The notes under the pieces are model-generated. The model saw nothing but the letters and a program-made list of their open reading frames with translations. It had not been told where the DNA came from and did no database searches. Made by a program: the position numbers and the translations under genes. From an uncultured archaeon (lineage in GTDB: Archaea > Asgardarchaeota > Jordiarchaeia > Jordiarchaeales > Jordiarchaeaceae), in assembly GCA_964510585.1 (NCBI GenBank), contig CAZECW010000202.1:1-29853 (forward strand): DNA of 29,853 nt. Reading direction: 5' to 3'. Of this stretch, positions 3,537-26,592 are shown piece after piece (positions within the stretch are counted from its first letter, which is position 1; each line of letters opens with the position of its first letter).

Positions 3537-5150
3537 TTAGCCTAAGGCTCCTCTAATTTTTCCTGCATAGAGAATCAGTTTTTGGGCTATTTCAAACATT
3601 TCTTCTCCCTGAATAATGTCGAAGAGCCCTTCTTTTTTGATGTCCCCCTTGGAGAGGGTGTGTGCTGAGAGGTACTCTGAAATCATATGCACCACTATTT
3701 CGTTGGACATTTCTGGATTCATATCAACATTGATGAATTCATTAATTTGTTTTAAGTCCTCCTTTACCTGTTCGCAGAGCCTTTTTGGCAGTACTTTTTG
3801 GACTGCGTCCATACAGATGAACCTTGAAGCAAAACTTAAGGATTCTTTTAGGGAAGGATAGTAGGTGTCTAGTAGTTTTTCCAGAGCGTCACTCTTCCAC
3901 TCGTTGACGGCGTTTAGTCCGCGTCCAGTGCCAATAAGTTCGGGAGGAAGCCCTATGCTATAAAGTGTGGCGGTAAAGGGAATAGGCTTAACTTTGGACT
4001 CGAATTTAAGTTCTCCAAATTTTAGAAGCTGCTTAGATATTTCTTTCTCCGTACACATTTTGGCCATCTGTTTAATCGTATCCTGGAAGGATGTTTGTCC
4101 GGTATCTTGGACGTTTATTGGCTTCTCGCGTTGGGAGGGGATCAAATCAAATATTCTTGTATCTAGTAGAATTTCATATAGGCTTTCCCAGTATTTGGCT
4201 GTAAATAGGCTAATTATGTTTACCATTTCATTTTTTTCTCTTTTTGAGAATGAGAGTGGTTTCTGCGATTGCAGTTTTTCTCTTAGCAGAGCAGACATTT
4301 TTTGGGTTTCCCTTCGATCAATATCATATCTTAGGCTTGGAGGAATGGTTAACGTTGATATCCCCGCGTATTCGGCTAGAATATTATCCAGATACTTAGG
4401 GTTACAGAATCCTCTGAATGGTAGAAAACCCGCATTTAAGATAGGGTATATTGGTGTGCCGGTTTCCTCTCTGAGCGCCGCAAGATCCGATATGGCGATT
4501 TTGGTGGCGAGTGTGGAGGGTACGAGTCCACAACTCATTGCGCAATCGGATCTTCCAAGAAATATTCTTAAATATCCTAGGGGAGTCAGCATGGAGGGGT
4601 AGGCTTTAAAATATTCCGAGACAATGTTTGAAATGTTTAGTAGGGAGGGCAAGTCCTTTATGAAGGGGATAATTTGAATGTCCTTAAGTTTAGCCGTTGG
4701 ATCAATAGTTTCCAGGATGTAGTTTTTAAGGATGTTAAAGTTCATTTCAATGCGGGTTAGTTCTTTGGGGAACTCTGTAAGGGGGTGGATGACCTCGTAA
4801 ATTGCCCCTCCATTCGTTTCGTTTCTCAAAATATAGTTTACTTCAATTATTTTTTGGAAAATGGCCATCCTTCTGAAACCAGGCTCATAATTGCCTGGGG
4901 GAACACTTGGTGTAAGATTAATGTTGAAGCTGGGAATTAAACCTTTATCCTTTAGTTTTTTAACTATCTCTTCTATGTGGTTAAAGGGTGTTAGTTTGGA
5001 TGTAAAGTCTATTACTTGCTCTTCTATTCCGAATCCTCCATCTTCACGGGAGGATAGACAGGTAACCGCTTCTTCTATCTCTTCGTCGAAACCGACGTAG
5101 GCTGTAGCGGAATCTGCATCTTGGGTTGCAACGGTGGCGGGAACACGCAT
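3537..5150 (-). CDS. ppcA: Archaeal-type phosphoenolpyruvate carboxylase (PpcA) homologue, apparently catalytically degenerate
   Basis: Colinear family motifs GGFGIEE, DFxxKLTP, RIFLGRSD, LPFRG, LRYD, YSIGLPPELIG and terminal GKIRGALG. The TQHPD motif reads TQDAD. ATG at 5150 gives 537 aa. Confidence 0.88.
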   Translation of the reverse strand: MRVPATVATQDADSATAYVGFDEEIEEAVTCLSSREDGGFGIEEQVIDFTSKLTPFNHIEEIVKKLKDKGLIPSFNINLTPSVPPGNYEPGFRRMAIFQKIIEVNYILRNETNGGAIYEVIHPLTEFPKELTRIEMNFNILKNYILETIDPTAKLKDIQIIPFIKDLPSLLNISNIVSEYFKAYPSMLTPLGYLRIFLGRSDCAMSCGLVPSTLATKIAISDLAALREETGTPIYPILNAGFLPFRGFCNPKYLDNILAEYAGISTLTIPPSLRYDIDRRETQKMSALLREKLQSQKPLSFSKREKNEMVNIISLFTAKYWESLYEILLDTRIFDLIPSQREKPINVQDTGQTSFQDTIKQMAKMCTEKEISKQLLKFGELKFESKVKPIPFTATLYSIGLPPELIGTGRGLNAVNEWKSDALEKLLDTYYPSLKESLSFASRFICMDAVQKVLPKRLCEQVKEDLKQINEFINVDMNPEMSNEIVVHMISEYLSAHTLSKGDIKKEGLFDIIQGEEMFEIAQKLILYAGKIRGALG

Positions 5151-5381
5151 AGATTTACACCCTTTTTTCTCTCCTCTGAGTCCCAACATTTTCCAAAAGT
5201 TTCTACTTAATTATTAATATGTTTAAATTAAAAAAACTTAACCTTAGAAAAAGGTTAAAATGATTTAAATGGGTTAAATATAATTCTAGAAATTAATGTT
5301 TCATGGAACATTTAACATTACAAATTTGAATGTTCTCTGCGAAAATAAATTCTGCTCAAAAATTAAATTCGGTGCAGTATC

Positions 5382-5843
5382 ATGCCTGACATTCATATTA
5401 GGGAGTACAAGTTTGAGGATGGGGATGAGGTGGAAGAACTTTTTCGCCACCACACAGAGAAGCACTTACGTAGATCAACGTCCCTTTTCTACAAAAAGGC
5501 TTTGGACGGAAAGCCTCCAGAGGATGTTGTAGCGGTAGTGGCAATTGCTAATGGTAGAGTTGTGGGATTCAGCGGAGTTAAGTTGCTGGGTGAAGGAAAA
5601 GTTATGTATCCCGCCACGATAGTTCATAGGGATTTTAGGAACAGAGGAATTGGAAAAATGCTGATGAGGAAAAAATTGGAAATAGCCCGCGAAAAGGGAC
5701 TTAGAGAGTACACTTCAATTGTTGGTGAGGAAAATATTGCTTCACGCAGAATGTTAGAAAGTCTGGGAAACTTTGAAATTGTTGAAAAAGGGAAATATGA
5801 TGAAAACAAAAAATGGGTAAAATACGCGAAAAAACTTATCTAA
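5382..5843 (+). CDS. GNAT-family N-acetyltransferase
   Basis: Acetyl-CoA motif A (VHRDFRNRGIG) and C-terminal NIASRRMLESLG. Confidence 0.9.
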   Translation: MPDIHIREYKFEDGDEVEELFRHHTEKHLRRSTSLFYKKALDGKPPEDVVAVVAIANGRVVGFSGVKLLGEGKVMYPATIVHRDFRNRGIGKMLMRKKLEIAREKGLREYTSIVGEENIASRRMLESLGNFEIVEKGKYDENKKWVKYAKKLI

Positions 5844-5989
5844 ACTTAAAAATGCTGGGCATGTTTCTTGGAATAGTTTAAAAGGTGGAGAAAAATATTA
5901 AACTCACAACTCAATTCCCCGTCTCTAAAATACCTTTTCAATCAAGAGAGGGAATTGTTTAAATCAGTTATTTTCAGGATGTGTATCCA

Positions 5990-6850
5990 ATGAGCGGTAA
6001 AACAGAAGCTTCCCGACTTCTCAGTGAAGGTAAAGAACTAATCAAAAAGGGAGACTATGAAAAGGCAGAAAAAATGTTCAAAGAAGCGCTGAAAAAATTT
6101 ACAAAAGAAGGTAACAACCGAGGCGTGGCAGAATCTGAAACACATCTGGGAATAGCTCTACAATATCAAGGAAAGTTGAAACAGGCAAAAGAGCACTTAG
6201 AGAGGGCTCTAAAGCTCCATGAGGATTTAGATTACAAGCCGGGAATCTCAAGAGTGTACACAAATCTAGGGAACATAAATCTACTAACATCTAAAGACTT
6301 TGAGAAGTCTCTTGAACTCCACCAAAAAGCTCTAAATATAGCCAGAGAAGCTAAGGACCAAGCGGGAGAAGCCAGGGCCCTTACAAATATTGGCTATGTT
6401 CAATTTAGACAACAAAAACTGGATGAGGCATTGGATACCCTGAATGAAGCCCTAAAAATCGCAAACAATGCCAAAGACGAACACATTCGCGCCGTCGCGT
6501 TATCCAACATAGGAATAATATTGTTCAACATGAAGCGATACGACGAGGCTCTCGAAAAACACAAGGAAGTGGCGGAGATTTTTGAGAAGTGGGGAAACAA
6601 GAAAAGATTAGCAATAGAACACAGACAAATTGGATTAATCTTGGAAAAGCAGAACAGGTACGATGAAGCTGCTAAACACTACCAGATTTCCCAAAAACTT
6701 TACGATGAAACCGGTCAGAAAAGCGAAAAGAAAATGGTGAAATCTATGTTAAACGCGGTAAAGACCAGAAAGAGGGAATGCCCATCATGCAAAACAGTAA
6801 TACTGGTACCAGAGTTAAAATATTGCCCCATCTGTAACAAGGATTTGTAA
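5990..6850 (+). CDS. Tetratricopeptide-repeat protein with C-terminal Zn ribbon
   Basis: About 6 TPR-like repeats (e.g. ARALTNIGYV, AVALSNIGII, SRVYTNLGNI) and terminal CPSC-x12-CPIC. ATG at 5990 (track start is GTG 5981). Confidence 0.88.
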   Translation: MSGKTEASRLLSEGKELIKKGDYEKAEKMFKEALKKFTKEGNNRGVAESETHLGIALQYQGKLKQAKEHLERALKLHEDLDYKPGISRVYTNLGNINLLTSKDFEKSLELHQKALNIAREAKDQAGEARALTNIGYVQFRQQKLDEALDTLNEALKIANNAKDEHIRAVALSNIGIILFNMKRYDEALEKHKEVAEIFEKWGNKKRLAIEHRQIGLILEKQNRYDEAAKHYQISQKLYDETGQKSEKKMVKSMLNAVKTRKRECPSCKTVILVPELKYCPICNKDL

Positions 6851-7001
6851 ACCAACGAAAGGAGGCAGCTCACTCCACCAATGCACCGCGAAAAAAGTTT
6901 AAACTATTATTTTGGCACATCCCAAACATTGGCAAGTCTTTAAACGTGAGTATGTGTTTATTGTTAATAGCTCCATTTGAAAATTTGGAAGGTTTTAGGC
7001 T

Positions 7002-7412
7002 ATGACTAAGAATAATGAGTTAACTCCAAGAATCGCTGTGGATGCCATAATTGTTAAGGGTGACTGCGTAGTCTTAATTAAAAGAAAGAACCCCCCTTTC
7101 CAAGATTATTATGCCCTTCCGGGAGGATTTGTGGAAGTAGGAGAATATGTTGAGGAAGCGGTGGTGAGGGAAGTTAAAGAAGAAACGGGGTTAGATGTTG
7201 AGGTAGAGAAGTTCTCAGGAATCTATGATGATCCAAAGCGTGACCCTCGAGGACACGTTGTAAGTATAGCATATGTTTGTAGGGTGGTGGGTGGAGAACT
7301 TAAAGCCATGACGGATGCCAAAGACGTTTACTGTATACCCATAAAGGAAATTAAAAATATCAAATTAGCTTTTGACCACGCAAAAATTCTCTCAGACGCT
7401 GGAATACTCTAG
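7002..7412 (+). CDS. Nudix hydrolase (ADP-ribose pyrophosphatase-like)
   Basis: Complete Nudix box GGFVEVGEYVEEAVVREVKEETG, plus RDPRGH and LAFDH. Confidence 0.93.
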   Translation: MTKNNELTPRIAVDAIIVKGDCVVLIKRKNPPFQDYYALPGGFVEVGEYVEEAVVREVKEETGLDVEVEKFSGIYDDPKRDPRGHVVSIAYVCRVVGGELKAMTDAKDVYCIPIKEIKNIKLAFDHAKILSDAGIL

Positions 7413-7451
7413 GTGCTTTTGAGCAGTATTTACCCTTCTTGTTCTGAATTT

Positions 7452-8966
7452 TTAGCTACGTACTCGGTAAACTATCATGTAGGGAAATCCTTGATAGTAA
7501 ATTACTAGTTCCCTTTGGTACAGAGGACTTGTTTCCAAATGCAGTAGGGACGTTAGCGGCACGTAGTTGAAGAGGCTCACGAATATTGCTCCTATGTGTC
7601 CGCTCCTCGCCCAGTCATCAAGCCATGAGGGGATGTCGGGAATCCACAGGCACAGTCTATCAGTGTAGTGTGTAGCCATGGGGTATACGTTGGTGAGTAT
7701 TATTTGCCAGGGATACGTGGTGTTTTTTAGGTACTGGTAAACGGGTAGAGGCTGTAATACTTCTGGATTGGTGCGAACAATGTAGACTCCGATGAAGCCT
7801 CCTGTGATGTTGAGGATTAACAGTAAAACTGCTAAGTTCTTCCTGTTTCTCAGAGGGTTCCCCCTGACAATATTTAGGATGTTTTTTCTATCATGAAACT
7901 CGTCTGTTAGAAATATGGCTAAACCGAATCCTGTAAGGATGCAGAAGGCGGGAAGGGAGGTTTGATTGTACCGGAAGAAATCCACCGGTCTCGAGTTCGG
8001 CATTAGAAGAAGGTAGGCCAGTAGAGAGGAGAGTATCCAGAATAGTAGTGTTCTACCTTGCGGGCTGCTTTTCTCGGCTTGGGATGCCTTATAAAAGTAT
8101 GGCAACAAGAATGCAGGGGTAACTATGGGGATTAGGGCATAAGCTAGGGATTCCAAATAGAATAGTACAAGTTGAAGTGGGTTTGGTGGGGCGAATATAT
8201 TAGAGTAGGGTGTTCTGCTCCAGCTTTGTGTAGACGTGAAAAATAGCCTTATGAAACCCAGCCAATCTCCAGTGTTAATTTTGCTGAAATATAACCAGGG
8301 GGCAGCTGTTAGAAGGGCGCAAATTATTCCCAGATATAGCCATGGGGATTTTAGTGTGTTTCTCAAATTTTTGGAGAGAATTATGTACGCTAAACCCACG
8401 AACAGGATGAGGGCTCCCGGATATCTGGAGAGGAAACTTAAAGTGAGAGAGACTCCGGCTGGCACATAGTATTTGGGATTTTTTTGGGCTCTCACTATGA
8501 ATAGGAGGAATAGAGAAGAAAACAGTATGTAGGGAACCTCACTCAGTATACCCCAAACAATGATGAAAAATGTTAGCCCACAGCTCAGGGCCAGAGCTGA
8601 GAATTTGCCCACAGTTTCACTATACATTTCCTTCCCCAAAAGGTAGACCGCATAAATTCCAGCCAGGGAAATCAAGAAACTAACCATCTGGGCAACAATT
8701 ATGTTTGGCGTGGTAACCAAATAAACCAAAAAGATGGTGAAGGGTAATAGGGGAACCCTTGAAAAGTCCAAAAGCACCTGGAGAGGTTGATAGCACAAAA
8801 AGCCAAAATAAAAGAAATCATTTGCCAGATTAGCATAAACCGCCTCATCCCATGTTAAAGGCACAGGATAGGCTGAGAGCACACCTCTAACAGCATTCAC
8901 AACAATAATAAAGGTAAGCACCCAATCCATTTTCGAACGTAACTGGCTGAGCATAACACTCACCAT
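7452..8966 (-). CDS. GT-C membrane glycosyltransferase, ArnT/PMT-2 (GT83/GT39-like)
   Basis: Many hydrophobic segments, N-terminal loop WDEAVY motif, and LSFLSRYPG and PWLYF segments typical of the family. Confidence 0.85.
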   Translation of the reverse strand: MVSVMLSQLRSKMDWVLTFIIVVNAVRGVLSAYPVPLTWDEAVYANLANDFFYFGFLCYQPLQVLLDFSRVPLLPFTIFLVYLVTTPNIIVAQMVSFLISLAGIYAVYLLGKEMYSETVGKFSALALSCGLTFFIIVWGILSEVPYILFSSLFLLFIVRAQKNPKYYVPAGVSLTLSFLSRYPGALILFVGLAYIILSKNLRNTLKSPWLYLGIICALLTAAPWLYFSKINTGDWLGFIRLFFTSTQSWSRTPYSNIFAPPNPLQLVLFYLESLAYALIPIVTPAFLLPYFYKASQAEKSSPQGRTLLFWILSSLLAYLLLMPNSRPVDFFRYNQTSLPAFCILTGFGLAIFLTDEFHDRKNILNIVRGNPLRNRKNLAVLLLILNITGGFIGVYIVRTNPEVLQPLPVYQYLKNTTYPWQIILTNVYPMATHYTDRLCLWIPDIPSWLDDWARSGHIGAIFVSLFNYVPLTSLLHLETSPLYQRELVIYYQGFPYMIVYRVRS

Positions 8967-9204
8967 AAATGAAAATAGTGGTATCTTTTCTCCAATAAAA
9001 ATTCTTCGATGATTTAAGCTACAAAATAACCCGCAATAGCCTTTTCTTTATGAAAAAATTCTCATCTAAATGTGTAAGGGTACGGAGAAGTAGGACTTGT
9101 AACAAGTATTTAATGCGCAACGAAAAAATGAGGCTCCCCATAAGAAAGTTTCTAAAAGGTTTTTAAAGGGTAATTATTTCTAATATTAAGGAAGCGTTCT
9201 TATA

Positions 9205-9888
9205 CTATTTTGAAAGTTTTCCTTTGATGAGCCACCAGAGGCAGATTATCCCATCTTTCCACCCTATTTTAGCCTTACCCTTTCTTCTATAACAATATGA
9301 TATGGGTACCTCTAATATCCTTTTGCCATTTTTAAGCAGCTTCACCGTTATCTCCGGCTCCAATTCGAACCCCTTGCACTTTAAACTAATTCCGTCGAGG
9401 GCCTTTTTGAAGAAAACCTTATATCCAGTCATTATGTCCGTGATTGAATTTCTGAAAAGGAGGCGGGTGGCCCAAGAGAGAAGCCTGTTCCCGAAGTTGT
9501 GTGAAAAGGACATTCCATCAGCCACGCCAAGAAATCTTGAACCATAAACAGCATCTGCTTGTCCCTTGATGAGAGGTTCAAGTAGGCGGGGTATATCATT
9601 TGGGAAATATTCCAAGTCTGCATCCTGGATAACTATTATGTCGCCGGTTGCATGTAAAAGCCCAGTTTGAATAGCTTTCCCCTTTCCCAGGTTTTTTTTG
9701 TGCTGTAGCAGTTTAATGCCAGTTTGAGTTTTGATTTTTTCTACAGAACTGTCCTCAGACCCGTCGTCAATAACAATGATTTCCTTAGGATACCCCAAGT
9801 CAACTTTCTTGACCAAATCTATGATCTCAAGGATATTGTTCTCCTCATTATAACACGGTATAAGAATTGTTATCTTAATTTCCTCCAC
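9205..9888 (-). CDS. GT2 glycosyltransferase, polyprenol-phosphate sugar synthase (DPM1-like)
   Basis: IPCYNEE, IDDGSED, GKGKAI, QDADLEY, VYGSRF, DIMTGYK, GFELEPE. GTG start follows GGAGG. Confidence 0.93.
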   Translation of the reverse strand: MEEIKITILIPCYNEENNILEIIDLVKKVDLGYPKEIIVIDDGSEDSSVEKIKTQTGIKLLQHKKNLGKGKAIQTGLLHATGDIIVIQDADLEYFPNDIPRLLEPLIKGQADAVYGSRFLGVADGMSFSHNFGNRLLSWATRLLFRNSITDIMTGYKVFFKKALDGISLKCKGFELEPEITVKLLKNGKRILEVPISYCYRRKGKAKIGWKDGIICLWWLIKGKLSK

Positions 9889-9939
9889 GTGTCAACCTCC
9901 AGAGCCTAACGTTCAAGTTGTTTTCCACCTCGACTGGGC

Positions 9940-11016
9940 TTATTTTTCGCCAATTTCAACTGGAGCTTTTTTCTGTGCTAAAAAGTTTGACCCCACACCA
10001 TTGTATATGACTGAGGGAATACCGGTCGCCAAACAGTAGGCAAATCTGACAATGTGATCCAACAGTGCGAAGGCTACCCCTAAACTCAGAGGTAGAAACA
10101 ATGCAAACCCCAAACTAAGGGGCGTTAGGTAGCCAGAACCCAAGCCGAAGGGCCCAGCCAGAGAGAGTATGAAGCCCACACCGAACTCGTAAATTCCGAA
10201 TCCACCAGGTAGCAAAGGAAGCAACTTTGTGAAGAAACCAATGATGGAAGCCAGCAGACATATATCAATTGGTAAAAAGAATCCAGTGCTGCGAGTTACA
10301 AAAATGGTTGAGGTAGCGTCAAGAAGCCATATGGGAAAGGATAATAAAGCCACAACTCCTAGCATTTTAGGCTTGTGATATAGTTGCTCCATACCAGTTT
10401 TGAAACCCACAACAAATAAGTTCAGTTTTTCGTAAAGTTTGGGGGAGATACGCTCCGTAAAACCGATTAATCGTTCACCATACAAAATGAAGGCGAATAT
10501 TAGTCCAACTAGTACAAAGCCAAACACAAAAGCTATTAAAATAAAGTTACGATAATCATCAGGAATCACGGTATTTAGACAAATTATCCCAAAAAGAACT
10601 GATGCAATTAGCACCATCGCAAAAATGTCAAAGATTCTCTCCACAGCAATTGTGGAGGTGCTTTCTCCTAATGAGATTTCTCTATCCTTATCATATAGTA
10701 AGTATATTCTTACAATGTCCCCAATTTTTGCGGGTGTTACCTCATTTACAAACCATCCAGACCAGAGCATCGTTACCGTATAGGGAACACTAACGTTGTG
10801 GTTTGTAGCCTTTATAATTGACCTCCAACGAATCGCCCTCAGCACAAAAGTAAACGTATAAACCCCCACAAACACCATAATCCAGTACAGGTTCATGTTT
10901 TTAATGAGGAACAAGATAAGGTCTAACCCAATGTACTGCACCAGAAACACCAACACTATGGCAGTTACGATCGCCGCCACAACTCTAGCAATTGTCCACT
11001 TAGTTATTCTCAACAT
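9940..11016 (-). CDS. Flippase-like membrane protein (lysylphosphatidylglycerol synthase TM / UPF0104 family)
   Basis: LRAIRW, NEVTPAKIGDIVR, ERIFD, PGGFGIYE motifs and multiple TM segments. ATG at 11016 follows GGAGTG. Confidence 0.88.
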   Translation of the reverse strand: MLRITKWTIARVVAAIVTAIVLVFLVQYIGLDLILFLIKNMNLYWIMVFVGVYTFTFVLRAIRWRSIIKATNHNVSVPYTVTMLWSGWFVNEVTPAKIGDIVRIYLLYDKDREISLGESTSTIAVERIFDIFAMVLIASVLFGIICLNTVIPDDYRNFILIAFVFGFVLVGLIFAFILYGERLIGFTERISPKLYEKLNLFVVGFKTGMEQLYHKPKMLGVVALLSFPIWLLDATSTIFVTRSTGFFLPIDICLLASIIGFFTKLLPLLPGGFGIYEFGVGFILSLAGPFGLGSGYLTPLSLGFALFLPLSLGVAFALLDHIVRFAYCLATGIPSVIYNGVGSNFLAQKKAPVEIGEK

Positions 11017-11395
11017 CGCTACACTCCAAATCAAAATTACATTACCTAAATCTCAGAATAATATAAACTTTTAGATTACAACAATTAAAAACTTTAACCC
11101 CTCCACACAATAAAACTATATTTATAGCCCAAAACTCTCACGCAATGCTTAATTTTACGAATATGAAAGCTGGACATTGATGAAATGAATTTAGACACAT
11201 AATTACAAGGCGCTCACTCCTGGCACGTAAAACAGGAACCCGGCAACTAGAAGTCGCAAGCATAAAGTTTTGAAAAATTTTGTGCAGTTCAAAATACTGG
11301 AAAAATGTTAAGAATTGTTTACCTATTACTGGAAGAGTCTGAAAAACAGGCACCTCTTATTGAAGGGAAAGTTCGAAGGATTGACTAATTCATAA

Positions 11396-12799
11396 TCATT
11401 TTTGTGTTTTTCTTCTGTGGTAGTTGTAGAGTGCTGATAGAACCCTTGCTGCTTTTCTTGGTGTGGAATAAACTGCTATCCCCCTCTTTTCTAATTCTTG
11501 GGCGCTTTTTGTCCATTCTGCTGCGGCGTTTTCTACCGCGGCTGTGGTTCCTATGACAATTGTGGGCTTGTTTATTTTTACATTGTTAAATGCATCTCGG
11601 GGTTCAACTGTTCCCGTAAAGTGGGGTATTATCAAAACTAAAGAGTCTACGGATTCATCTTTAACCATGTATTCTAAGAGTAGGTTGTAGGCTTGTATGA
11701 TTCCCAAATTTTGGCAGGCTGTGAACATATCAACTGGATTATCCACTTTAAGCCAGCTTGCCGATATTTCTCTAATTTTTCTCATGGTTTCTTTTGAGAG
11801 TTCCGCAAGGTCTAAGCCGAATTCCTCGCAGGCATCCACAAGCAATGCGCCCAGTCCACCTGTAAAGGTTAGGATTCCAACCCTATTTCCCGTCAGTGGT
11901 GGAAGCACATTAAACCCTTTTGCTATGTCTGCCCATTCATCTAGGTCTACTGCTTGTATTAAGCCCGCCTGCTTAAAAGCTGCCTTATTAACCTCGTTTC
12001 TGCCAGCAAGCGAACCAGTATGCGCCTGAATGGCTTTTGAACCCTTCTCACTCACACCCGACTTCAGAACGATAACTGGTTTCTTTTGGGAGACATCACT
12101 TGCCACACGCATAAACCTCTTACCATCGCGCAATCCTTCTATGTGCAGGGCTATAACTTTCACAGTTGGGTCGTTTCCCAAATATTCTAGGGTGTCGGAA
12201 AAGTCCACATCGCACATGTTTGCTAAATCAATTATGTGGCTTACCCCTCCGAATACTTCGGAGTAATACTTGGCGCAGGCTATGAAGGTGCCTGTCTGAC
12301 TAACTATGGCAGCTCCACCGGGGATGATATCTTTATGGGGTGCAAAGGCGGTGTCCAATTTTTTCTTCATATTAAGAATTCCCTGAGAATTAGGGCCAAT
12401 TATCCTGATTTTGTACTTTTGGGCGGTTATAAGCATCTCTCTTTCTAATCTCTTACCCTCCTCTCCAGCATCAGAAAAGCCCGCCGCGGCAACTATAGCC
12501 CCTTTAACTCCCTTAGCCCCACAGTCTTCTAAAGCCTCAGGAACCAACTCCCGCGGTACAGCCAAACAAGCCAAATCCACAGTGCCAGGAACCTCAGAAA
12601 CTGAAGAGTAAACTTCGCAGCCATATATCTTTTCACCCTTAGCCCTAGGATTCACTGGATAAATTTCTCCCTCAAAACCGTTAACAAGATTCCAAACAAT
12701 AACATTACCAATCTTCATAGGTGTAGGTGAGGCACCCACCACCGCAACAGAATCCGGCTCCAAAAAACTTTTCAAAGGGGATTCACCAGCATCAGGCAT
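11396..12799 (-). CDS. acdA: ADP-forming acyl/acetate-CoA ligase alpha subunit
   Basis: CoA-binding VAVVGAS, IIGPNSQG, phospho-His motif HTGSLAG, and NPVD. Confidence 0.9.
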   Translation of the reverse strand: MPDAGESPLKSFLEPDSVAVVGASPTPMKIGNVIVWNLVNGFEGEIYPVNPRAKGEKIYGCEVYSSVSEVPGTVDLACLAVPRELVPEALEDCGAKGVKGAIVAAAGFSDAGEEGKRLEREMLITAQKYKIRIIGPNSQGILNMKKKLDTAFAPHKDIIPGGAAIVSQTGTFIACAKYYSEVFGGVSHIIDLANMCDVDFSDTLEYLGNDPTVKVIALHIEGLRDGKRFMRVASDVSQKKPVIVLKSGVSEKGSKAIQAHTGSLAGRNEVNKAAFKQAGLIQAVDLDEWADIAKGFNVLPPLTGNRVGILTFTGGLGALLVDACEEFGLDLAELSKETMRKIREISASWLKVDNPVDMFTACQNLGIIQAYNLLLEYMVKDESVDSLVLIIPHFTGTVEPRDAFNNVKINKPTIVIGTTAAVENAAAEWTKSAQELEKRGIAVYSTPRKAARVLSALYNYHRRKTQK

Positions 12800-15189: not shown

Positions 15190-15609
15190 TTATTCGCCGA
15201 TGATCTGAAGAATTATATTCCTGTTTCTTGCCCTTACGTCTAACTCTATGAAAACAATTTGTTGCCAGGTTCCCAAAAGGAGTTTCTTTTGAGTGTAGGG
15301 AACAGTTAAACTGGGGCCTATCAATGATGCCCTACAGTGGCTGTGCCCATTTCCGTCATGCCACCTTAATTCATGCTCGTAACCCATATTTTTGGGGGAG
15401 ATTCTCTCCAAAATCTTGGGAAAATCCTTCAGCAGTCCCGGCTCATATTCAATGGTGGTAACCGCACCAGTGGCACCGGGAACAAAGATAGTCACGATAC
15501 CACTTGTAGTTTGCGATTCAGAGACAGCCTTTTGTACCATGTCTGTTATATCGATAATCTGGACCTCACCCTGAGTTGAAAAACTAATTTTTTTAGTTTC
15601 AACGGTCAA
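15190..15609 (-). CDS. yjbQ: YjbQ/UPF0047 family protein
   Basis: GATGAVTTIEYEPG, NGHSHCRASLIG, LLLGTWQQI. TTG start at 15609 follows GAGGTG. Confidence 0.9.
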   Translation of the reverse strand: MTVETKKISFSTQGEVQIIDITDMVQKAVSESQTTSGIVTIFVPGATGAVTTIEYEPGLLKDFPKILERISPKNMGYEHELRWHDGNGHSHCRASLIGPSLTVPYTQKKLLLGTWQQIVFIELDVRARNRNIILQIIGE

Positions 15610-15953
15610 CCAAAACACCTCAACCAGCAAATTTATCTAAGTATTTGTAAGCCCCTTAAAATATAAGGATTTTATAAATCGGTTTTAGACTTCCTGATGC
15701 TTCTTGCGTTGTTTAGGCTTGCGAATCCTTAGGGGGAGGGTTACTTGTGTGAAATTTCCCACTTTTGGGAATTTAGTAATAATTGGAAAAATATAACGGA
15801 AACATATTTAAATATGAATTAATCTATACTATATTAGTCGCAAAAATTTAAGCACGTATTGCGAATATCTCAAAAGACACAAGTGAGGAAAAAACAAAAC
15901 AAGCAATCTAACTTAAAAAAATAAAGGGTTATAAGAAAGGTTGGTGTTGTGTT

Positions 15954-20143: not shown

Positions 20144-21136
20144 TTATGTATTAATTTTGAAAAGCACCTTGTTGTCTTTGAGGTGAGCGGTGACTTTTCC
20201 CAGTTTAATGAGTCTCTGCATGTAGCCGAGGGTGGCACCCTGAAGCATATAGTTACTCTTGTCCACGTTGTAGGATTCCGCGGTTAAATCTTCTAAGGTT
20301 ACACACTTCCTTTTCTCCAAAATATCCAAGAAAATTTGTTCCCTTTTCAGCTTTCTTTCTATGTCTTCCTGTAGCTTTTTGTATGGCTCATTTATGAGTG
20401 GGCCGTGGGCTGGAAGTATAAATTTTAAATCTAATTTTTGCAATCGTTCCAGTGATTTTAGGTATATTGAGATGTTATCAGGTATTTTGTTGTCTGCATC
20501 CAAGATTTCGCGTATCTTTAGTTTGCTCAGTTCTCTCCAACCGTATCCTACGAAGGTGGTTCCTGTTCCAATCACGTGGTCTCCTGAGAACAGAATTTTC
20601 CTATCCTCATCATAGAGACAAATATGTCCGTCGGCGTGACCCGGAGTTTCAATTACTCTTAGATTAAATTTTCCAAATCTGATTATTTCGTTTTCCTTAA
20701 CTTTTCTTTCTACATTTGATTCGTCTATTAAGAGGTTAAAATCCATGTACCTGTCTATCATTTCCTTTATTTTTGGCTCAAACTCTGAATAGAGTAGGCT
20801 GTTTTTGATGCTTAAAATGTGTTGGTGATACTTCTCAATTATTGCTGCAGCTTTATGTGAGGCGATAACAATCGACTTGGATGCATTCTTTATTTTTTGG
20901 TTTCCCCCAAAGTGTTCGACATGTTCATGGGTGTTTATTACTAGTGAAACGTCCTTCAAATTTCTACCTATCTCCTCTAGTTCTGAGACAATCACCTTCA
21001 TTGACCACGCGTCCCCCAATCCAGTATCAATTATGGCTGGCTCTTCACCTTCCAAAAAATAAACATTCAGCTCGGGAGTGGCAGGGAAGGGAAGCTTAAG
21101 CGTGAACATATAAATATCTTCAAAGATTTCCTTCAT
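20144..21136 (-). CDS. MBL-fold hydrolase, LACTB2/glyoxalase-II-like, paralogue 1
   Basis: IIDTG, THEHVEH, TPGHADGH, FSGDHVIG, LPAHGP, and a probable C-terminal winged helix. Confidence 0.88.
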   Translation of the reverse strand: MKEIFEDIYMFTLKLPFPATPELNVYFLEGEEPAIIDTGLGDAWSMKVIVSELEEIGRNLKDVSLVINTHEHVEHFGGNQKIKNASKSIVIASHKAAAIIEKYHQHILSIKNSLLYSEFEPKIKEMIDRYMDFNLLIDESNVERKVKENEIIRFGKFNLRVIETPGHADGHICLYDEDRKILFSGDHVIGTGTTFVGYGWRELSKLKIREILDADNKIPDNISIYLKSLERLQKLDLKFILPAHGPLINEPYKKLQEDIERKLKREQIFLDILEKRKCVTLEDLTAESYNVDKSNYMLQGATLGYMQRLIKLGKVTAHLKDNKVLFKINT

Positions 21137-21232: not shown

Positions 21233-22219
21233 TCATTTAAGCCTGTAGTAGATTTGGTTTTCTTTTATAACCTTCTCGATTTTTCCAAGCTCCAGGAGCC
21301 TATCAATGTAGGCAAGGGTTGATCCTTTGAGCAGGTGGTCAAGTTGTAATGAGCCGTACACTTTCTGGGTTAAACTTTCTAAGGTTTCCTCACCGCCTTC
21401 AAGGGTTTTCAAAATCATTTGCTCCCTCAAAAGTTTTCGATCCATATCTTCTCTGATTTTCTTGTGAGGCTCAGTGACAATGGGGCCGTGTGCTGGTAAT
21501 ATAAGCTTTATGTCTAAAGGCAACAAGCGTTCAAGTGAATTGATGTAGTGAGTAATGTTCCCATGTTCCACGTTTTTAACACCCATCTTACTTGCCACTC
21601 TATCAACTATCATATCTATAATGCCATAACCCACAAATGGAGTCCCTATGCCGATTACATGATCTCCAGAGAACAGAATTTTCCTCTCCTCATCATAGAA
21701 ACAAATATGACCAGGAGCGTGACCAGGAGTGTGGATGGTTTTAAGAGAGAATTGTCCGAGGTCTATGAGGTCTCCATCGCTTAACTGTTTTTCGACTTTT
21801 GTGGAGCTTATTGAGGATTGAAAGGCCAGGTATCTCTCAGCCACAGCCCGCATTTTAGGATCTATGTCCGCTTCCTTTACTGTGGCGAATAGTTGCAATA
21901 CAAAATCTGAGAAGTTTTGGATAACGTTTGCGGCCTTTTTATGGGCGGAAACTTGGGCTCCTGAATTCTTTTTTATTATTTCATCCCCTGCGAAGTGTTC
22001 TACATGTTCATGAGTATTAAGTATTCTACTAACGTCACTAAGTTTAAGCCCTAAACTGCCCAAAGAATCAGAAATGGCTCGAAAAGATTTCGGGTCACCA
22101 GGCCCCGTATCAATTAATGCGACTTCATCTCCTACAAGTATGTATATATTCATATCAGGGGTCCACGTGAAAGGTAGATTAATTTTTAGCCTGTAAATTC
22201 CTTCAACAATTTTCTCCAA
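21233..22219 (-). CDS. MBL-fold hydrolase, LACTB2/glyoxalase-II-like, paralogue 2
   Basis: LIDTG, THEHVEH, TPGHAPGH, FSGDHVIG, LPAHGP. Colinear with paralogue 1. Confidence 0.88.
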   Translation of the reverse strand: MEKIVEGIYRLKINLPFTWTPDMNIYILVGDEVALIDTGPGDPKSFRAISDSLGSLGLKLSDVSRILNTHEHVEHFAGDEIIKKNSGAQVSAHKKAANVIQNFSDFVLQLFATVKEADIDPKMRAVAERYLAFQSSISSTKVEKQLSDGDLIDLGQFSLKTIHTPGHAPGHICFYDEERKILFSGDHVIGIGTPFVGYGIIDMIVDRVASKMGVKNVEHGNITHYINSLERLLPLDIKLILPAHGPIVTEPHKKIREDMDRKLLREQMILKTLEGGEETLESLTQKVYGSLQLDHLLKGSTLAYIDRLLELGKIEKVIKENQIYYRLK

Positions 22220-22242
22220 CGGAACTCCCTTCTTACTTGAAT

Positions 22243-22404
22243 TTACTCATTGGATTCCGGTTTTGGGTCTGTGTAAGTGGAAAATTGGCTTAGTTCCTCT
22301 TTTGCTATAAGCACTGCACATTCCTTGCAGTACCTTTTTCCTCCGATTGTAACATATTTTCCTTCCTCTAGAATTTTCCCACAGTTAATTACGGCGCACT
22401 TCAT
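22243..22404 (-). CDS. Small treble-clef Zn-finger protein (LIM-half-like)
   Basis: ATG at 22404 follows AGGTGA. Sequence C-x3-NC-GKIL...GGKRYCKEC, 53 aa. Confidence 0.72.
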   Translation of the reverse strand: MKCAVINCGKILEEGKYVTIGGKRYCKECAVLIAKEELSQFSTYTDPKPESNE

Positions 22405-22558
22405 TCCAGTCACCTGTCCAACGCCAATGAATCCAACAAACTTTTTTGTCATTTTAAAGTGTTATAGGGAAACTTTAAACCCTTTCCCTTCACTCATCAC
22501 AAAAACTGGAAAACGCCCCAAAAAGATTCGTGGAGGAAAGCTCTTACAGATGTGGATG

Positions 22559-24073
22559 TTATATTTCCGTGTATAGTTTGAAGGTGATGAGTAAATGCAC
22601 TGATCTGGGTCCGAAAGTAGTGAGTAGATAAATGTTTTCCCTGCTGCCCAACATTAGTTCTCCATTGTGATAGGGGACAGTAATATCTTTTTGCCCATAG
22701 GTGGTTGCTACGATGTGGTCTGGGAAATTGAAATCTGCTCTGTTTTCGGCCGCCATGACTGTGTGTAGTTTCATATCTGGTGACTTTCTCGTCTTTTCCA
22801 CAAACTCGTAGTGGAGTTGGAGAAAGTTTCCAGCCTCATTTTCATTGATTATTAGTGAGGTTGTGGTGTGTTTGGTTCGAATTTGAACCTCGCCATTAGT
22901 AAATTTGGGAAAATTTCTCCTCACACTTGACACTATCTCTTCTAGAGCCGGCTGGACCCATAACAATTGTGTTATGGAAAATGAGTTTAATAGTAAGTCG
23001 AAGTGAAGTTCAATAAAGCTCACACCGCTGCCCTTTATTTCGGTCTCCTCAGTAGGACCAAATATTTGGGTTATGTTGTATGGTTTGGGCAACCGCAAAT
23101 TTTTACCAAAAATCTCTGATTTCTTAGTAATATTTTTTAATTTATACCAGCGGTGCGCATTACGAAAACCCAATATACGTAGCAAGCTCCTCCAAGCCAG
23201 CACCAGTTCTTCGGTGGATTCCCAAAGTCCCCTCACCATCTGCGAAATTTCCATTGTGGGCGTAGCGCTTCCTATAAGAATTCTGCTGAATGAGTTCTGT
23301 ACTAGTCCCGGCTGGGAAAATAGTATTGAGAAAAATTTAGTGGGCGAAACTCCTCCAATGGACCGCGCGTCAACCTCAACCGCGAGATTAGGATGGTATT
23401 TTAAAAGATTAAAGTACTGCAACAAATCGGAACTTATGTCTCCGTTACTGATGATAACTTTGAGTTTCGGGTAAGAATGGAGGAAGCGGTCTATTAATCG
23501 GGGGTCAGTTAATCTCCTATCATTATCAGGTAGGTGCATGTTTCCCGCATCAATCTTCAGTGGAAAATTATGCGAAATGCAGATATCAACTAGGTGTTTG
23601 ATTTTGGGTGCATCCTCCACCAAATTTAACCCCAAGTAGCTTGGATAGATTGCTATTCCCGCAATGGAATCGGGAGTTGTCTTAATATATGAATTCAGTT
23701 CTTTAACAGAATTAGTATCAACGGGGTTAACCGATAAAATAGAGCTGAAAACTTGCTCGTTTAATTTTGCTACTTCAAGCACCCAATCATTGGGGATCCC
23801 ATAAGGTCTTCCAAGCTCCATTCCTTGGAGTAGAACCTTCTCAATTCCACTACACTGTAATTCTAAAGCAAATTCTCCGAGGCCAATCCTCCTATTGTAG
23901 AAGAGGGGATTTCCATTCCGGACTAGACTAAGCAAGTTGCGGACAGATTTCGGTAAGCTTAAATTTTCAAAGATTGGCCAGACCAGGCAGTCCACCATTG
24001 GAAAATCAAAAGGATTTCTAAACATCTCCCCAAATACTGGGCTAAAATCGGGGCAATACAGTCTCTCCAACAT
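22559..24073 (-). CDS. Fusion of a degenerate amidohydrolase-2 domain and a C-terminal YjbQ/UPF0047 domain
   Basis: The N-terminal ~310 aa follow amidohydrolase-2 order (NDWVLEVA, SVNP, GIAIYP, YPKLKVII, RILIGS). The C-terminal ~150 aa contain HTTTSLIINENE, GELMLG and GPR. Confidence 0.75.
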   Translation of the reverse strand: MLERLYCPDFSPVFGEMFRNPFDFPMVDCLVWPIFENLSLPKSVRNLLSLVRNGNPLFYNRRIGLGEFALELQCSGIEKVLLQGMELGRPYGIPNDWVLEVAKLNEQVFSSILSVNPVDTNSVKELNSYIKTTPDSIAGIAIYPSYLGLNLVEDAPKIKHLVDICISHNFPLKIDAGNMHLPDNDRRLTDPRLIDRFLHSYPKLKVIISNGDISSDLLQYFNLLKYHPNLAVEVDARSIGGVSPTKFFSILFSQPGLVQNSFSRILIGSATPTMEISQMVRGLWESTEELVLAWRSLLRILGFRNAHRWYKLKNITKKSEIFGKNLRLPKPYNITQIFGPTEETEIKGSGVSFIELHFDLLLNSFSITQLLWVQPALEEIVSSVRRNFPKFTNGEVQIRTKHTTTSLIINENEAGNFLQLHYEFVEKTRKSPDMKLHTVMAAENRADFNFPDHIVATTYGQKDITVPYHNGELMLGSRENIYLLTTFGPRSVHLLITFKLYTEI

Positions 24074-24119
24074 TTTTACATCTCCACAGAGCTTAATTTT
24101 AATTTTTAATCAGCGGCGA

Positions 24120-24527
24120 CTAGAAGTGAATTTCGTTTCTATAGGGAATAGCTTCTGTTCCACCCACCCCTTGGATGCTATAGCTAGCAATTGTAAGGGC
24201 CATATCTACCATTTCTTCTAAACTCATACCCTCCAAGTATCCCGTTATCAGTCCAGAATCAAATGCGTCGCCAGCTCCGATTGTGTCTATAATGTTTTCA
24301 ACCGGTATTTCCTCAACCACTTCGAATGTGGCTTTTAGAACCGCAGGCTCAGTTAAGATATCCTTGTAGAGGTTGAAGGGATGTTGGGTAGCAGGTTTGG
24401 CTCCTAGGGCTCTATACATTACGGGATATTCTGTAGTTCCTTCAATTTCCCGGTATCTATCTCCCTTTATGAAACTCCAGGCTGCGGGCCTCTCATCATG
24501 TTTCATAACTCTTTTTTCTTGAGCCAT
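24120..24527 (-). pseudogene. Chimeric ORF: SIS-domain sugar isomerase/deglycase N-terminus fused to a PfkB kinase C-terminus
   Basis: HPFNLYKDILTEPAVLKAT resembles the entry to a GlmS/FrlB-type SIS region. It is followed directly by IIDTIGAGDAFDSG...ASYSIQGVGG (PfkB signature 2). Both domains are mostly missing. Confidence 0.65.
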
Positions 24528-24807
24528 TTCTAATACCACTCCAGTATGGGTTAATGGACAAGCTCACCTAAAAATTTAAGCATATTGAAAAAGCTGCTCT
24601 TATTTACTGTGCTTCATCCTTTGAATGTAAAAAATTAGCCGATTTTTATCCAATTTTAATAACAAAAGATAAATTATTTTTTATATTAAAAATATTTAAT
24701 AGTAATATTTTTATTAAAAACATGTTTTTTTCCTGTTTCGAAACTAATATAAGTAACAAATTGGATAATATTGCATAGCAACACAATAAGAGGGTGCGGA
24801 TAGCATA

Positions 24808-25086
24808 ATGCAAAACTCAAAAATCACACAACTCAAATCACTGAAAAGTAGCGTCACCCACTGGTTACACATAGGCAACCTCGTTACAATAGCCTCCTCC
24901 CTAGTAGGTTTGGCCATCGCCTACAGTGCTATGAATTCACTAGCCGTAACCGCACTAGGACTAGTATTCATAGCCTCACTCAGCCTCGAAGTTTTCAGAA
25001 GCAATTTTTTAATCGAGCCGGAGAAGAATGGAACAGCCAAAACGCAGGAAATTAAACAACAAACCAGCCGTAGAAAAAGAAGATAA
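24808..25086 (+). CDS. Small membrane protein (2 predicted TM helices, basic C-terminal tail)
   Basis: ATG follows GAGGGTG. Two hydrophobic stretches and a terminal SRRKRR. Confidence 0.6.
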   Translation: MQNSKITQLKSLKSSVTHWLHIGNLVTIASSLVGLAIAYSAMNSLAVTALGLVFIASLSLEVFRSNFLIEPEKNGTAKTQEIKQQTSRRKRR

Positions 25087-25231
25087 CAATTTTTTCTTTG
25101 TCACTACTTTTATTGGACTTAGCTTTCCTCGGACTCAAACTTTTTTAGTTGAAGCGTAAAAAGAGAGTTTTACTTATTTTTGCTAAAAATTTAAATCTAG
25201 TTAGGGAGAAATACAATAAAAGCAACTAAAA

Positions 25232-26386
25232 ATGGAGGTTAACTTTTTGCCTATTGACTTTGGATTTACCCCCGAACAAGAAGAATTGAGGGCTTCGGTA
25301 AGGGAATGGTGCCAGAAAGAAATCGCACCCCTAGTGGAAGAAATGGAAGCCAAGGAAGAGTTCAACAAGGGTCTTGTCGCCAAATTTAAAAAGAAGTTTC
25401 TGAACATGTGGATTCCCAAGCAGTATGGAGGAACAGAAGCCGACACTGTGGATATTTGCATTGTGGCTGAGGAAGTTGGCTACGTTTGTGGCTCCTGTTT
25501 AACCCTCCTAGAGGTGGGAGGCTTAGGTTGTCTACCCATTGTAATTGGCGGAACTGAGGAACAGAAAAAGAGGTTCCTGCCACCCATAGCCAGTGGAGAG
25601 AAGTTTTATGGATTCGCTTTGACTGATGAGGGCCCAGGCTCTGATCCCGCCAATATGAAGCTAAGAGCCGAAAAAAAAGGTGACGAATATATCCTAAACG
25701 GAATGAAGCGCCTAATTAGCAACTGCGACATTTCAAACAGCATACTCACCTTTGCCAAAACCGATCCCTCAAAAGGAGCAAGGGGCATTAGTGCATTTCT
25801 GATTGATATTGGAACCCCGGGATTTGTGGTTGGAAAGAGGCTGTGGGGTTGGGGTATAAAGGTACACCATACAAACGAGTTAGAATTTCACGACTGCAGA
25901 GTTCCCGCAGATAGATTAATTGGCAAAGAGAATGAGGGATTCGTATACGCCATGAAATGCCTTGACCGAACCAGACTTGTTTTAGCTGCGGGCAATGTGG
26001 GAATAGCTAGAGCGTCCTTCGACATAGCGGTGAAATTTGCGCAGGAAAGAATAGCCTTTGGAAAACCAATATCGGAAAACCAGGCAATAAGCTTTAAACT
26101 TGCCGAGATAGCCACAGAAATTGAAGCCGCACGCCTCCTAGCCTACAAGGCAGCTTGGCTGGACAATAAAAAGGTTCGCCACACCACAGAAACCTCAATG
26201 GCTAAATGGTACGCCTGCGAATTAGCAAGAAAGTCCGCTGAAGCCGCAGTGAAAATATTGGGTGGCTATGGGTGGAGTAAGGACTACCCAGTAATGATAC
26301 ACTTACACGACGCCCTAGGATTCATTAACGCCCAGGGAACTACAGAAATACACAAAATGATAATTTCCAGAGCAATTTTCGACTAA
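25232..26386 (+). CDS. Acyl-CoA dehydrogenase-family flavoprotein with non-canonical active site
   Basis: FTPEQEEL, GSDPA, LNGMK, RIAFGKPI, ILGGYG. The usual YEGT motif reads AQGT. Confidence 0.92.
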   Translation: MEVNFLPIDFGFTPEQEELRASVREWCQKEIAPLVEEMEAKEEFNKGLVAKFKKKFLNMWIPKQYGGTEADTVDICIVAEEVGYVCGSCLTLLEVGGLGCLPIVIGGTEEQKKRFLPPIASGEKFYGFALTDEGPGSDPANMKLRAEKKGDEYILNGMKRLISNCDISNSILTFAKTDPSKGARGISAFLIDIGTPGFVVGKRLWGWGIKVHHTNELEFHDCRVPADRLIGKENEGFVYAMKCLDRTRLVLAAGNVGIARASFDIAVKFAQERIAFGKPISENQAISFKLAEIATEIEAARLLAYKAAWLDNKKVRHTTETSMAKWYACELARKSAEAAVKILGGYGWSKDYPVMIHLHDALGFINAQGTTEIHKMIISRAIFD

Positions 26387-26592
26387 ATTCCCAATTCAAC
26401 CCTATTTTTCCATTTTAACCACCAAACCTGATAAGAAACCAACATTGTTGGATATTCTCTAGGCTGAGTGTCTGGAAATCTTGCACACACAGGACTGTTC
26501 CGCATTAACAACCTTGAGATTATAGTCCGTTGGTCTCCTCCAACTATTTTGCAAGTTGCAGTAATATGGGCTTTGGTGGTTCCCAGAGATTT

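Follow-up and report, generated by a model that had tools for sequence, protein, structure and literature searches.

We analysed a 29,853-nucleotide stretch of DNA (the window) from an uncultured archaeon of the Jordiarchaeia, phylum Asgardarchaeota (GenBank assembly GCA_964510585.1, contig CAZECW010000202.1), in which a reverse-strand gene encodes an amidohydrolase-fold barrel fused to a YjbQ domain. An original prediction made from the letters of the window had described the protein as a ligand-sensing or substrate-presenting dead barrel on a trimerising YjbQ module. The open reading frame (ORF) shares its start, MLERLY, with its homologues, and comparison with 121 full-length homologues (37-92% identical, beginning and ending at the same points) divided the protein into four segments (Table 1). 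The N-terminal extension had the highest mean conservation of the four (0.73), and the linker between the two domains had the lowest (0.49) and carried a long insertion in one homologue (P0123). A single-chain AlphaFold2 model, built on 32 homologues, was predicted with a local confidence (pLDDT) of 88.9 and an overall fold confidence (pTM) of 0.87, with pLDDT values of 56-78 in the linker. The fusion is most likely a working protein of two domains that is restricted to Asgard archaea, chiefly to Lokiarchaeia-type lineages and this Jord/Frey-type genus, and is most likely the single-chain counterpart of a two-gene module made of an Amidohydro_2 (AH2) protein and an Arg-type YjbQ. The conserved domain architecture is new and carries a derived loss of the metal site.

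Table 1. Coordinates, within the window, of the fusion gene, its domains and key codons, and related neighbouring ORFs
Feature	Position	Strand	Basis or remark
Whole gene, fusion protein P0001, 504 amino acids (aa)	22559..24073	(-)	ORF open; stop codon 22559-22561
N-terminal extension, residues 1-23 (L5, Y6, D9, F10 conserved)	24005..24073	(-)	Family conservation
Amidohydro_2-fold (beta/alpha)8 barrel, residues 24-315	23129..24004	(-)	Pfam and structure match
Replaced ligand codons L30; W32; D175; N210; A270	23984-23986; 23978-23980; 23549-23551; 23444-23446; 23264-23266	(-)	
Inter-domain linker, residues 316-349	23027..23128	(-)	Least conserved segment
YjbQ/UPF0047 domain, Arg type, residues 350-504	22562..23026	(-)	Pfam and Foldseek
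YjbQ-domain codons H402; R478-E479	22868-22870; 22637-22642	(-)	
Chimeric 139-aa ORF, SIS head and PfkB tail	24120..24539	(-)	Junction ~24310; DNA alignment to sister genome G121
Stand-alone YjbQ paralogue, Trp type (GTWQ)	15190..15630	(-)	PF01894 119.8 bits; PGATGA for HTT

The barrel half was identified by profile and by structure. Residues 88-209 matched Amidohydro_2 (PF04909) in Pfam with a marginal 27.5 bits (gathering threshold 26.4), and a precomputed PF04909 match was present in only 3 of the 120 listed homologues. Structural comparison of residues 24-313 with amidohydrolase-superfamily barrels gave Z scores of 25.2 for 3irs, 21.8 for 3cjp and 21.4 for the lactonase-type 4dlf, with decarboxylases and TatD nucleases among the lower-ranked matches, and Foldseek matched the barrel with an E value of 1.8e-11. 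The Z score to 3irs confirmed the earlier assignment of the N-terminal half as an amidohydrolase-fold TIM barrel. This best match (3irs / 3k4w, aligned over 262 residues with a root-mean-square deviation of 3.0) is BB4693 of Bordetella bronchiseptica, the only amidohydrolase that the family profile found in the PDB (E 1e-4). BB4693 is also ligand-poor, with IDFRLRP for DxHxH, IMMTGG at beta5 and GTAYP at beta8, and therefore offers a structural precedent for an amidohydrolase-2 barrel with few His ligands. Unlike the fusion, BB4693 is a stand-alone bacterial protein without a YjbQ domain and keeps the beta6 His (SSHGN). Our literature search found no paper on BB4693/3irs.

Metal-ligand positions were mapped by alignment to stand-alone Amidohydro_2 proteins and the codons were checked. 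The canonical amidohydrolase ligand set (HxH after beta1, His after beta5, His after beta6 and Asp after beta8) is absent from the fusion. The DxHxH position reads D28-C-L30-V-W32 and beta4 carries AIYP; D175 stands in for the beta5 His, N210 for the beta6 His and A270 for the beta8 Asp. None of the 121 homologues had a His at positions 30, 32, 175 or 210 or an Asp at 270, and the replacements themselves were conserved, with W32 in 120/120 homologues and D175 in 120/121. By alignment, then, the barrel has no metal-ligand residues at the canonical positions in any member of the family, in agreement with the prediction that all the usual ligands were replaced, and every motif quoted in its support was present in the window.

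Other residues of the barrel were strongly retained. Y59, E71, E233, S269, E275, Q278 and R304 were invariant in all 121 homologues, and R61, K173 and D175 (120/121 each) and R237 (119/121) were nearly so. Together with Q83 these residues make up a family-conserved polar and cationic set that is concentrated on the catalytic face of the barrel, where strand ends and loops had a conservation of 0.71 as compared to 0.59 on the opposite face. Against two congeneric orthologues the ratio of nonsynonymous to synonymous substitution (dN/dS) was 0.07-0.13 for the barrel, 0.09 for the YjbQ domain and 0.27 for the linker, and values near 0.1 indicate that both halves are under purifying selection. The low dN/dS and the retention of invariant polar and cationic residues argue that the barrel is not decaying, and the description of the barrel as dead was not borne out. 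A ligand-sensing role found no specific support.

The C-terminal half matched UPF0047/YjbQ (PF01894) in Pfam over residues 383-492 with 41.5 bits (gathering threshold 27). Its sole NCBIfam match was also to YjbQ (TIGR00149), at 37.3 bits and under the equivalog cut-off of 67.75. Foldseek matched this part to 1vph, 1vmj and 1ve0 with E values of ~1e-10 and template modelling scores of 0.75-0.82 on the target, establishing it as a YjbQ domain with the limits that had been proposed. We compared it with the YjbQ/UPF0047 set defined by PF01894, TIGR00149 and the structures 1vph, 1vmj, 1ve0, 1xbf and 2p6c. The fold is the same, a homotrimer is predicted, and the invariant His of the HTT motif, the NE pair, two later His, and the N, P and G are all kept. 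The motif residues are H402-TT, N410-E411, H437, N449 and H453, followed by LGSRENI, which holds R478-E479. G394, T404, H437, N449, H453, P467 and G476 correspond to columns that are invariant among the aligned stand-alone YjbQs, and H402, N410 and E411 to nearly invariant columns. Within the fusion family H402, T404, N410, E411, H437, N449, H453 and R478 were present in 121/121 members, G476 in 120/121 and P467 in 118/121. The fusion differs from the common type, a stand-alone protein of ~140 aa, in that its YjbQ domain sits behind a 315-residue barrel, carries Arg-Glu in place of Trp-Gln, contains a 15-20 residue insertion (~425-445) with the invariant H437 and E443, and falls below the TIGR00149 cut-off.

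Oligomerisation was assessed by predicting three copies of residues 330-504 together. A homotrimer was predicted with an interface score (ipSAE) of 0.85 as compared to 0.00 for the best of 3 controls; of proteins solved as one-chain pairs 20 of 30 attained the mark used for this score, and of proteins solved as single chains 1 of 23. Across the runs at least 73% of contacts agreed and the pLDDT of the partner was at least 72. The proposed trimerising module is supported by this prediction, though the prediction may echo the solved YjbQ trimers. The predicted interface includes residues 401-403, 408-411 and 474-480, and places H402/T403 of one chain in contact with G476/R478/E479/N480 of its neighbour. 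R478 thus lies beside H402 in the predicted inter-subunit pocket, and it is plausible from the model that it holds an anionic group.

We then determined how widely the architecture is distributed. A large protein collection contained at least 149 cluster representatives of the fusion with 37-92% identity over the full length; all the named ones came from Asgard metagenome-assembled genomes (MAGs) and were labelled only as 'YjbQ family protein' or 'thiamine phosphate synthase YjbQ'. The ESM Atlas held one cluster of 134 members, 95% of them archaeal. Among 400 genomes of the phylum the gene was present in 62, limited to five GTDB families, including 50 of 135 genomes of a large Lokiarchaeia-type family and 3 of 6 genomes of the source organism's genus. 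In the remaining three genomes of the genus, which include a closed and 100% complete one, there was no match. An exhaustive search of 1.84 billion representatives found the same architecture nowhere outside the fusion family, and beyond the family recovered only plain YjbQ or plain amidohydrolases with E values above 1e-7. We found no paper on the barrel-YjbQ architecture, several papers on 'YjbQ' being about an unrelated Bacillus cation antiporter. The claim that the architecture was undescribed therefore stands for the literature but not for the databases, and the family is better called unstudied than unseen, as it is common in Asgard genomes and automatically annotated as 'YjbQ family protein'.

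A few copies were broken. On one Lokiarchaeial contig (L041 2300-3576) the fusion is split into pieces of 120 aa and 191 aa, and on another (L042 2072-3387) it forms adjacent ORFs of 307 and 128 aa with ~58 residues missing; both degraded copies sit in the usual neighbourhood of Metallophos, coiled-coil and permease genes. Short hits were considered as a naturally split form of the family and were rejected as fragments or degraded copies. One metagenomic protein, P0148 (247 aa), begins with ~180 residues resembling a fragment of penicillin amidase and closes with the C-terminal 66 residues of the fusion family; the gene call is probably broken or chimeric.

The two halves also occur as neighbouring genes. 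P0150, the best stand-alone match to the barrel among the 1.84 billion representatives, sits in a PfkB-AH2-YjbQ operon. Related loci numbered 80 and came from Terriglobia/Acidobacteriota, Anaerolineae, two MAGs named 'delta proteobacterium' and the closed Atabeyarchaeia-1 chromosome. Of 78 testable loci, 74 had YjbQ directly after AH2 in the same orientation (gap -4 to 291 nt), and a PfkB kinase gene preceded AH2 in 50 of 76. Further upstream were genes for a DeoR regulator and a double-SIS protein, and in Anaerolineae an Amidohydro_1 gene as well, giving a typical order of DeoR-SIS-PfkB-AH2-YjbQ. The double-SIS partners scored as GlmD-, GlmS-isomerase-domain-, AgaS- or NagB-II-like and the kinases as PfkB sugar kinases, so that the module is best read as part of sugar or amino-sugar phosphate operons. 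This gene-pair and operon setting, which the original prediction had overlooked, offers the strongest clue to function. Another near relative of the barrel, P0166, lies in a SIS-PfkB-transporter-AH2 string.

The AH2-partnered YjbQs shared a residue signature with the fusion. Partnered YjbQs carried Arg in 73/73 at the residue equivalent to R478, which is the Trp of the common G-T-W-Q motif. Stand-alone Asgard YjbQs sampled across families had Trp in 40/41 and Arg in 0/41, and 0/41 abutted an AH2 gene. Two proteins chosen only by their likeness to the fusion followed the same pattern. P0153, a stand-alone YjbQ with the identical GSRENIY motif, is followed 3 nt later by an AH2 gene, the opposite order to the fusion, and the Arg-type P0164 has the end of an AH2 gene before it and a SIS gene after it. 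Since Arg was found in every partnered YjbQ, in none of the unpartnered ones and in 121/121 fusions, LGSRE marks a class of AH2-partnered YjbQs, and the LGSRENI that the original prediction had noted in place of LGTWQ is not a degeneration. The split pairs of Terriglobia, Anaerolineae and Atabeyarchaeia resemble the fusion in their superfamilies, in the order AH2 then YjbQ, in the Arg, and in having SIS and PfkB upstream, as in the sister genome G121. They differ in being two proteins and in their barrels, which keep all four His (78/78) where the fusion keeps none. The split AH2 proteins have Asn at the position of the beta8 Asp in 75/78, and judging from this replacement of a catalytic residue they may not be ordinary hydrolases.

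The second YjbQ of the window (Table 1), which had been called canonical, is a genuine YjbQ by its PF01894 score but is not fully canonical, lacking the HTT motif and with it the first conserved His. No amidohydrolase gene adjoins it. A further YjbQ in the same genome (contig C39, L002 1342-1821) has both HTT and GTWQ and is divergent from a gene for a 207-aa metallophosphoesterase. At two other Asgard loci (L135 of G173 and L158 of G298) a Trp-type stand-alone YjbQ shares its strand with an AH2 gene that lies 1.3-1.4 kb off, with a single gene between them.

The genes upstream of the fusion were reconstructed by DNA alignment to G121, whose orthologue is 93% identical. G121 carries a tight operon of SIS (6604-7869, 421 aa), PfkB (7870-8814, 314 aa) and the fusion (8861-10375), with both operon partners intact. 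Window positions 26497..24311 aligned to 4637..6832 of the G121 contig and positions 24309..21361 to 8625..11569, so that the window is without the 1,792 bp at G121 (L129) positions 6833-8624. The deletion joins the first ~76 SIS codons in frame to the last ~60 PfkB codons. The 139-aa ORF upstream of the fusion is a deletion scar, all that is left of SIS and PfkB, the two leading genes of a SIS-PfkB-fusion operon. Pfam found PfkB in this ORF at residues 75-132 only. For its head, BLASTP, Pfam and NCBIfam found nothing and protein alignment gave only a short motif-like resemblance to SIS; the SIS identity was established by the DNA alignment. A closer kinship of the PfkB tail to the PfkB neighbour of Lokiarchaeial fusions was rejected, the likeness being generic (27-38% over ~55 aa). 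In a third congener, G120, the whole SIS-PfkB stretch is gone.

In Lokiarchaeia a tagatose-kinase-like PfkB gene lies one or two genes upstream of the fusion in most loci, within a conserved string of NMO, PfkB, Metallophos, fusion, coiled-coil protein, permease and PHP genes. Across loci L018-L030 a gene encoding a calcineurin-like phosphoesterase of 660-680 aa was always divergent from the fusion gene. A 240-250-aa PHP-domain protein recurs near the fusion in Lokiarchaeia and also in family f19.

These data are best accounted for, in our estimate with a probability of roughly 55%, by a trimer built around its YjbQ domains, with a phosphorylated sugar or amino-sugar derivative as its substrate and with the barrel as a metal-free module for binding or as a second site. 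The fusion would act after the PfkB sugar kinase, on the phosphorylated product. Chemistry would take place at the inter-subunit site of YjbQ, in predicted pockets formed by H402/T403 of one chain and R478/E479 of the next, with Arg replacing Trp to hold an anionic group. The barrel would no longer be a metal hydrolase, and its conserved pocket (R61, K173, D175, E233, R237, Q83, S269) would bind or present the substrate or a second ligand. In the source genome the fusion may work with kinases encoded elsewhere, or it may be the last survivor of a decaying operon. Known sugar-amine and amino-sugar pathways of the FrlB/FrlD, AgaS and GlmD/NagB-II types likewise pair SIS and PfkB proteins, but all scores of the operon partners were far below the equivalog cut-offs, so that none of the known substrates applies. 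To our knowledge no such pathway includes an AH2 or YjbQ step.

Several observations weigh against this interpretation. The substrate is suggested by neighbouring genes only, and several Asgard lineages have no sugar-related neighbours but ribosomal-protein, GTPase or radical-SAM genes instead. The locus is unstable in the genus, with SIS-PfkB deleted in 2 of the 3 genomes that carry the fusion and no match in three more genomes. The profile scores single out no operon-type AH2 or YjbQ as the nearest relatives of the halves, other AH2 and Trp-type YjbQ proteins scoring as high or higher against the family profiles. Many AH2 and YjbQ proteins stand at about the same distance from the halves, so that direct descent from a split pair was not demonstrated, and descent from a P0150-type pair in particular was not supported by the profile test. 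The split AH2 proteins keep their four His, so the fused barrel may act differently from them. Lastly, the trimer prediction may draw on the solved YjbQ trimers and would then speak for likeness to them rather than for binding.

A more far-reaching proposal, which we hold tentatively and with less than even confidence, is that AH2 and Arg-type YjbQ form an undescribed two-component enzyme, its parts encoded by separate genes in bacteria and Atabeyarchaeia but by a single one in Lokiarchaeia-type Asgards, that performs a step in the breakdown of phosphorylated sugar-amines or amino sugars. The fused barrel would then be a metal-free pseudoenzyme or neo-enzyme module. If true, the universally distributed YjbQ/UPF0047 family would thereby gain its first physiological role.

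In the main rival reading the barrel has catalysis of its own at a rebuilt, His-free site made of K173, D175, E233 and D235, perhaps aided by Mg2+ or Mn2+ bound to carboxylates, and the fusion is a bifunctional enzyme for two consecutive steps. K173 and D175 share one strand, E233 and D235 the following one, and in the model they are placed at the C-terminal, catalytic ends of beta5 and beta7. The residues are invariant or nearly so, and the dN/dS of the barrel is as low as that of the YjbQ half. The amidohydrolase-superfamily lactonase LigI needs no metal, and its structure 4d8l was among the structural matches (Z 18.3). However, position 235 varies across the family (D in 92, E in 18, N in 9 and T in 2 homologues), and we know of no amidohydrolase-superfamily enzyme that works with all five positions replaced. 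We consider a catalytic barrel rather unlikely.

Less probable still is that the fusion is a relic in this genome, its operon partners gone and itself on the way to loss without a current function. The 1,792-bp deletion, the absence of SIS and PfkB from G120, the lack of a match in half of the genomes of the genus and the degraded Lokiarchaeial copies L041 and L042 would all fit such a course. The ORF is nevertheless intact over its 504 codons with a dN/dS of 0.095-0.124 against two congeners, and the start of the operon and its upstream DNA have been kept. Moreover, most Asgard lineages keep the fusion without SIS-PfkB neighbours, which argues that it does not depend on that operon.

Several members of the family are named thiamine-phosphate synthase by JGI, in line with the TIGR00149 title 'secondary thiamine-phosphate synthase enzyme YjbQ'. 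Weak complementation of thiE by E. coli yjbQ is on record (PMC3020362, citing Morett et al. 2008), and the activity is called weak and secondary there. The fusion scored 37.3 bits against the TIGR00149 cut-off of 67.75, and no thiamine gene was found in the ~30 neighbourhoods examined, making this assignment highly improbable.

The idea that assembly or gene calling had joined two genes was refuted: apart from one contig on which the halves are adjacent ORFs with an internal deletion (L042), nothing was found in its favour, whereas a contig from an independent hot-spring sample (run X2) covers 21900-23492 across the linker with zero differences, full-length homologues occur in 62/400 genomes and more than 100 independent assemblies, and the whole chain was modelled with a pTM of 0.87.

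YjbQ/UPF0047 proteins occur in all three domains of life and were present in 149/151 Asgard genomes and 10/14 control genomes. Several crystal structures are available, yet the sole reported activity is a weak secondary one. The fusion, the gene pair and the Trp-to-Arg exchange together give one class of YjbQ a partner (the AH2 barrel), a pathway context (a SIS deaminase/isomerase-like protein and PfkB) and residues to mutate. This makes YjbQ function experimentally tractable, which is the main value of the finding. In addition, the fusion is a clear example from nature of an amidohydrolase barrel that has lost its entire metal site and is still strongly selected, and so bears on the origin of pseudoenzymes and neo-enzymes. 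The database labels 'YjbQ family' and 'thiamine phosphate synthase' hide the larger half of the protein.

Additional features were observed around the fusion gene. Directly downstream are tandem paralogues of the metallo-beta-lactamase fold (20144-21136 and 21233-22219, minus strand, 328 and 330 aa); the pair also follows the fusion in G120, and at least the first does so in G121. Between these genes and the fusion lies a 69-aa Cys-rich protein (22243-22452, minus strand) whose only match, a weak one, is to prokaryotic metallothionein (E 8e-4). Genes resembling acyl-CoA dehydrogenase (ACAD) flank the fusion in the window (25232-26386, plus strand) and in family f19 (L034 11449-12711 and L035 6821-8086). 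The two ACADs are only 21% identical, and ACAD was therefore rejected as a conserved partner and its presence taken as coincidence. The f19 loci form a tight operon of the ACAD-like gene, a 277-283-aa protein and the fusion, with gaps of 23-47 nt. This 277-283-aa protein had no match in Pfam or NCBIfam and was not found in the source genome with this query. Large unannotated proteins are encoded near P0060 and near P0112 and are not common to both loci. Run X1, probably the source sample, gave no contigs here owing to a filter, which does not speak for absence. In one RNA-library run (X10) two 151-nt contigs were 98% alike to positions 22599-22955, a likeness that is no proof of transcription.

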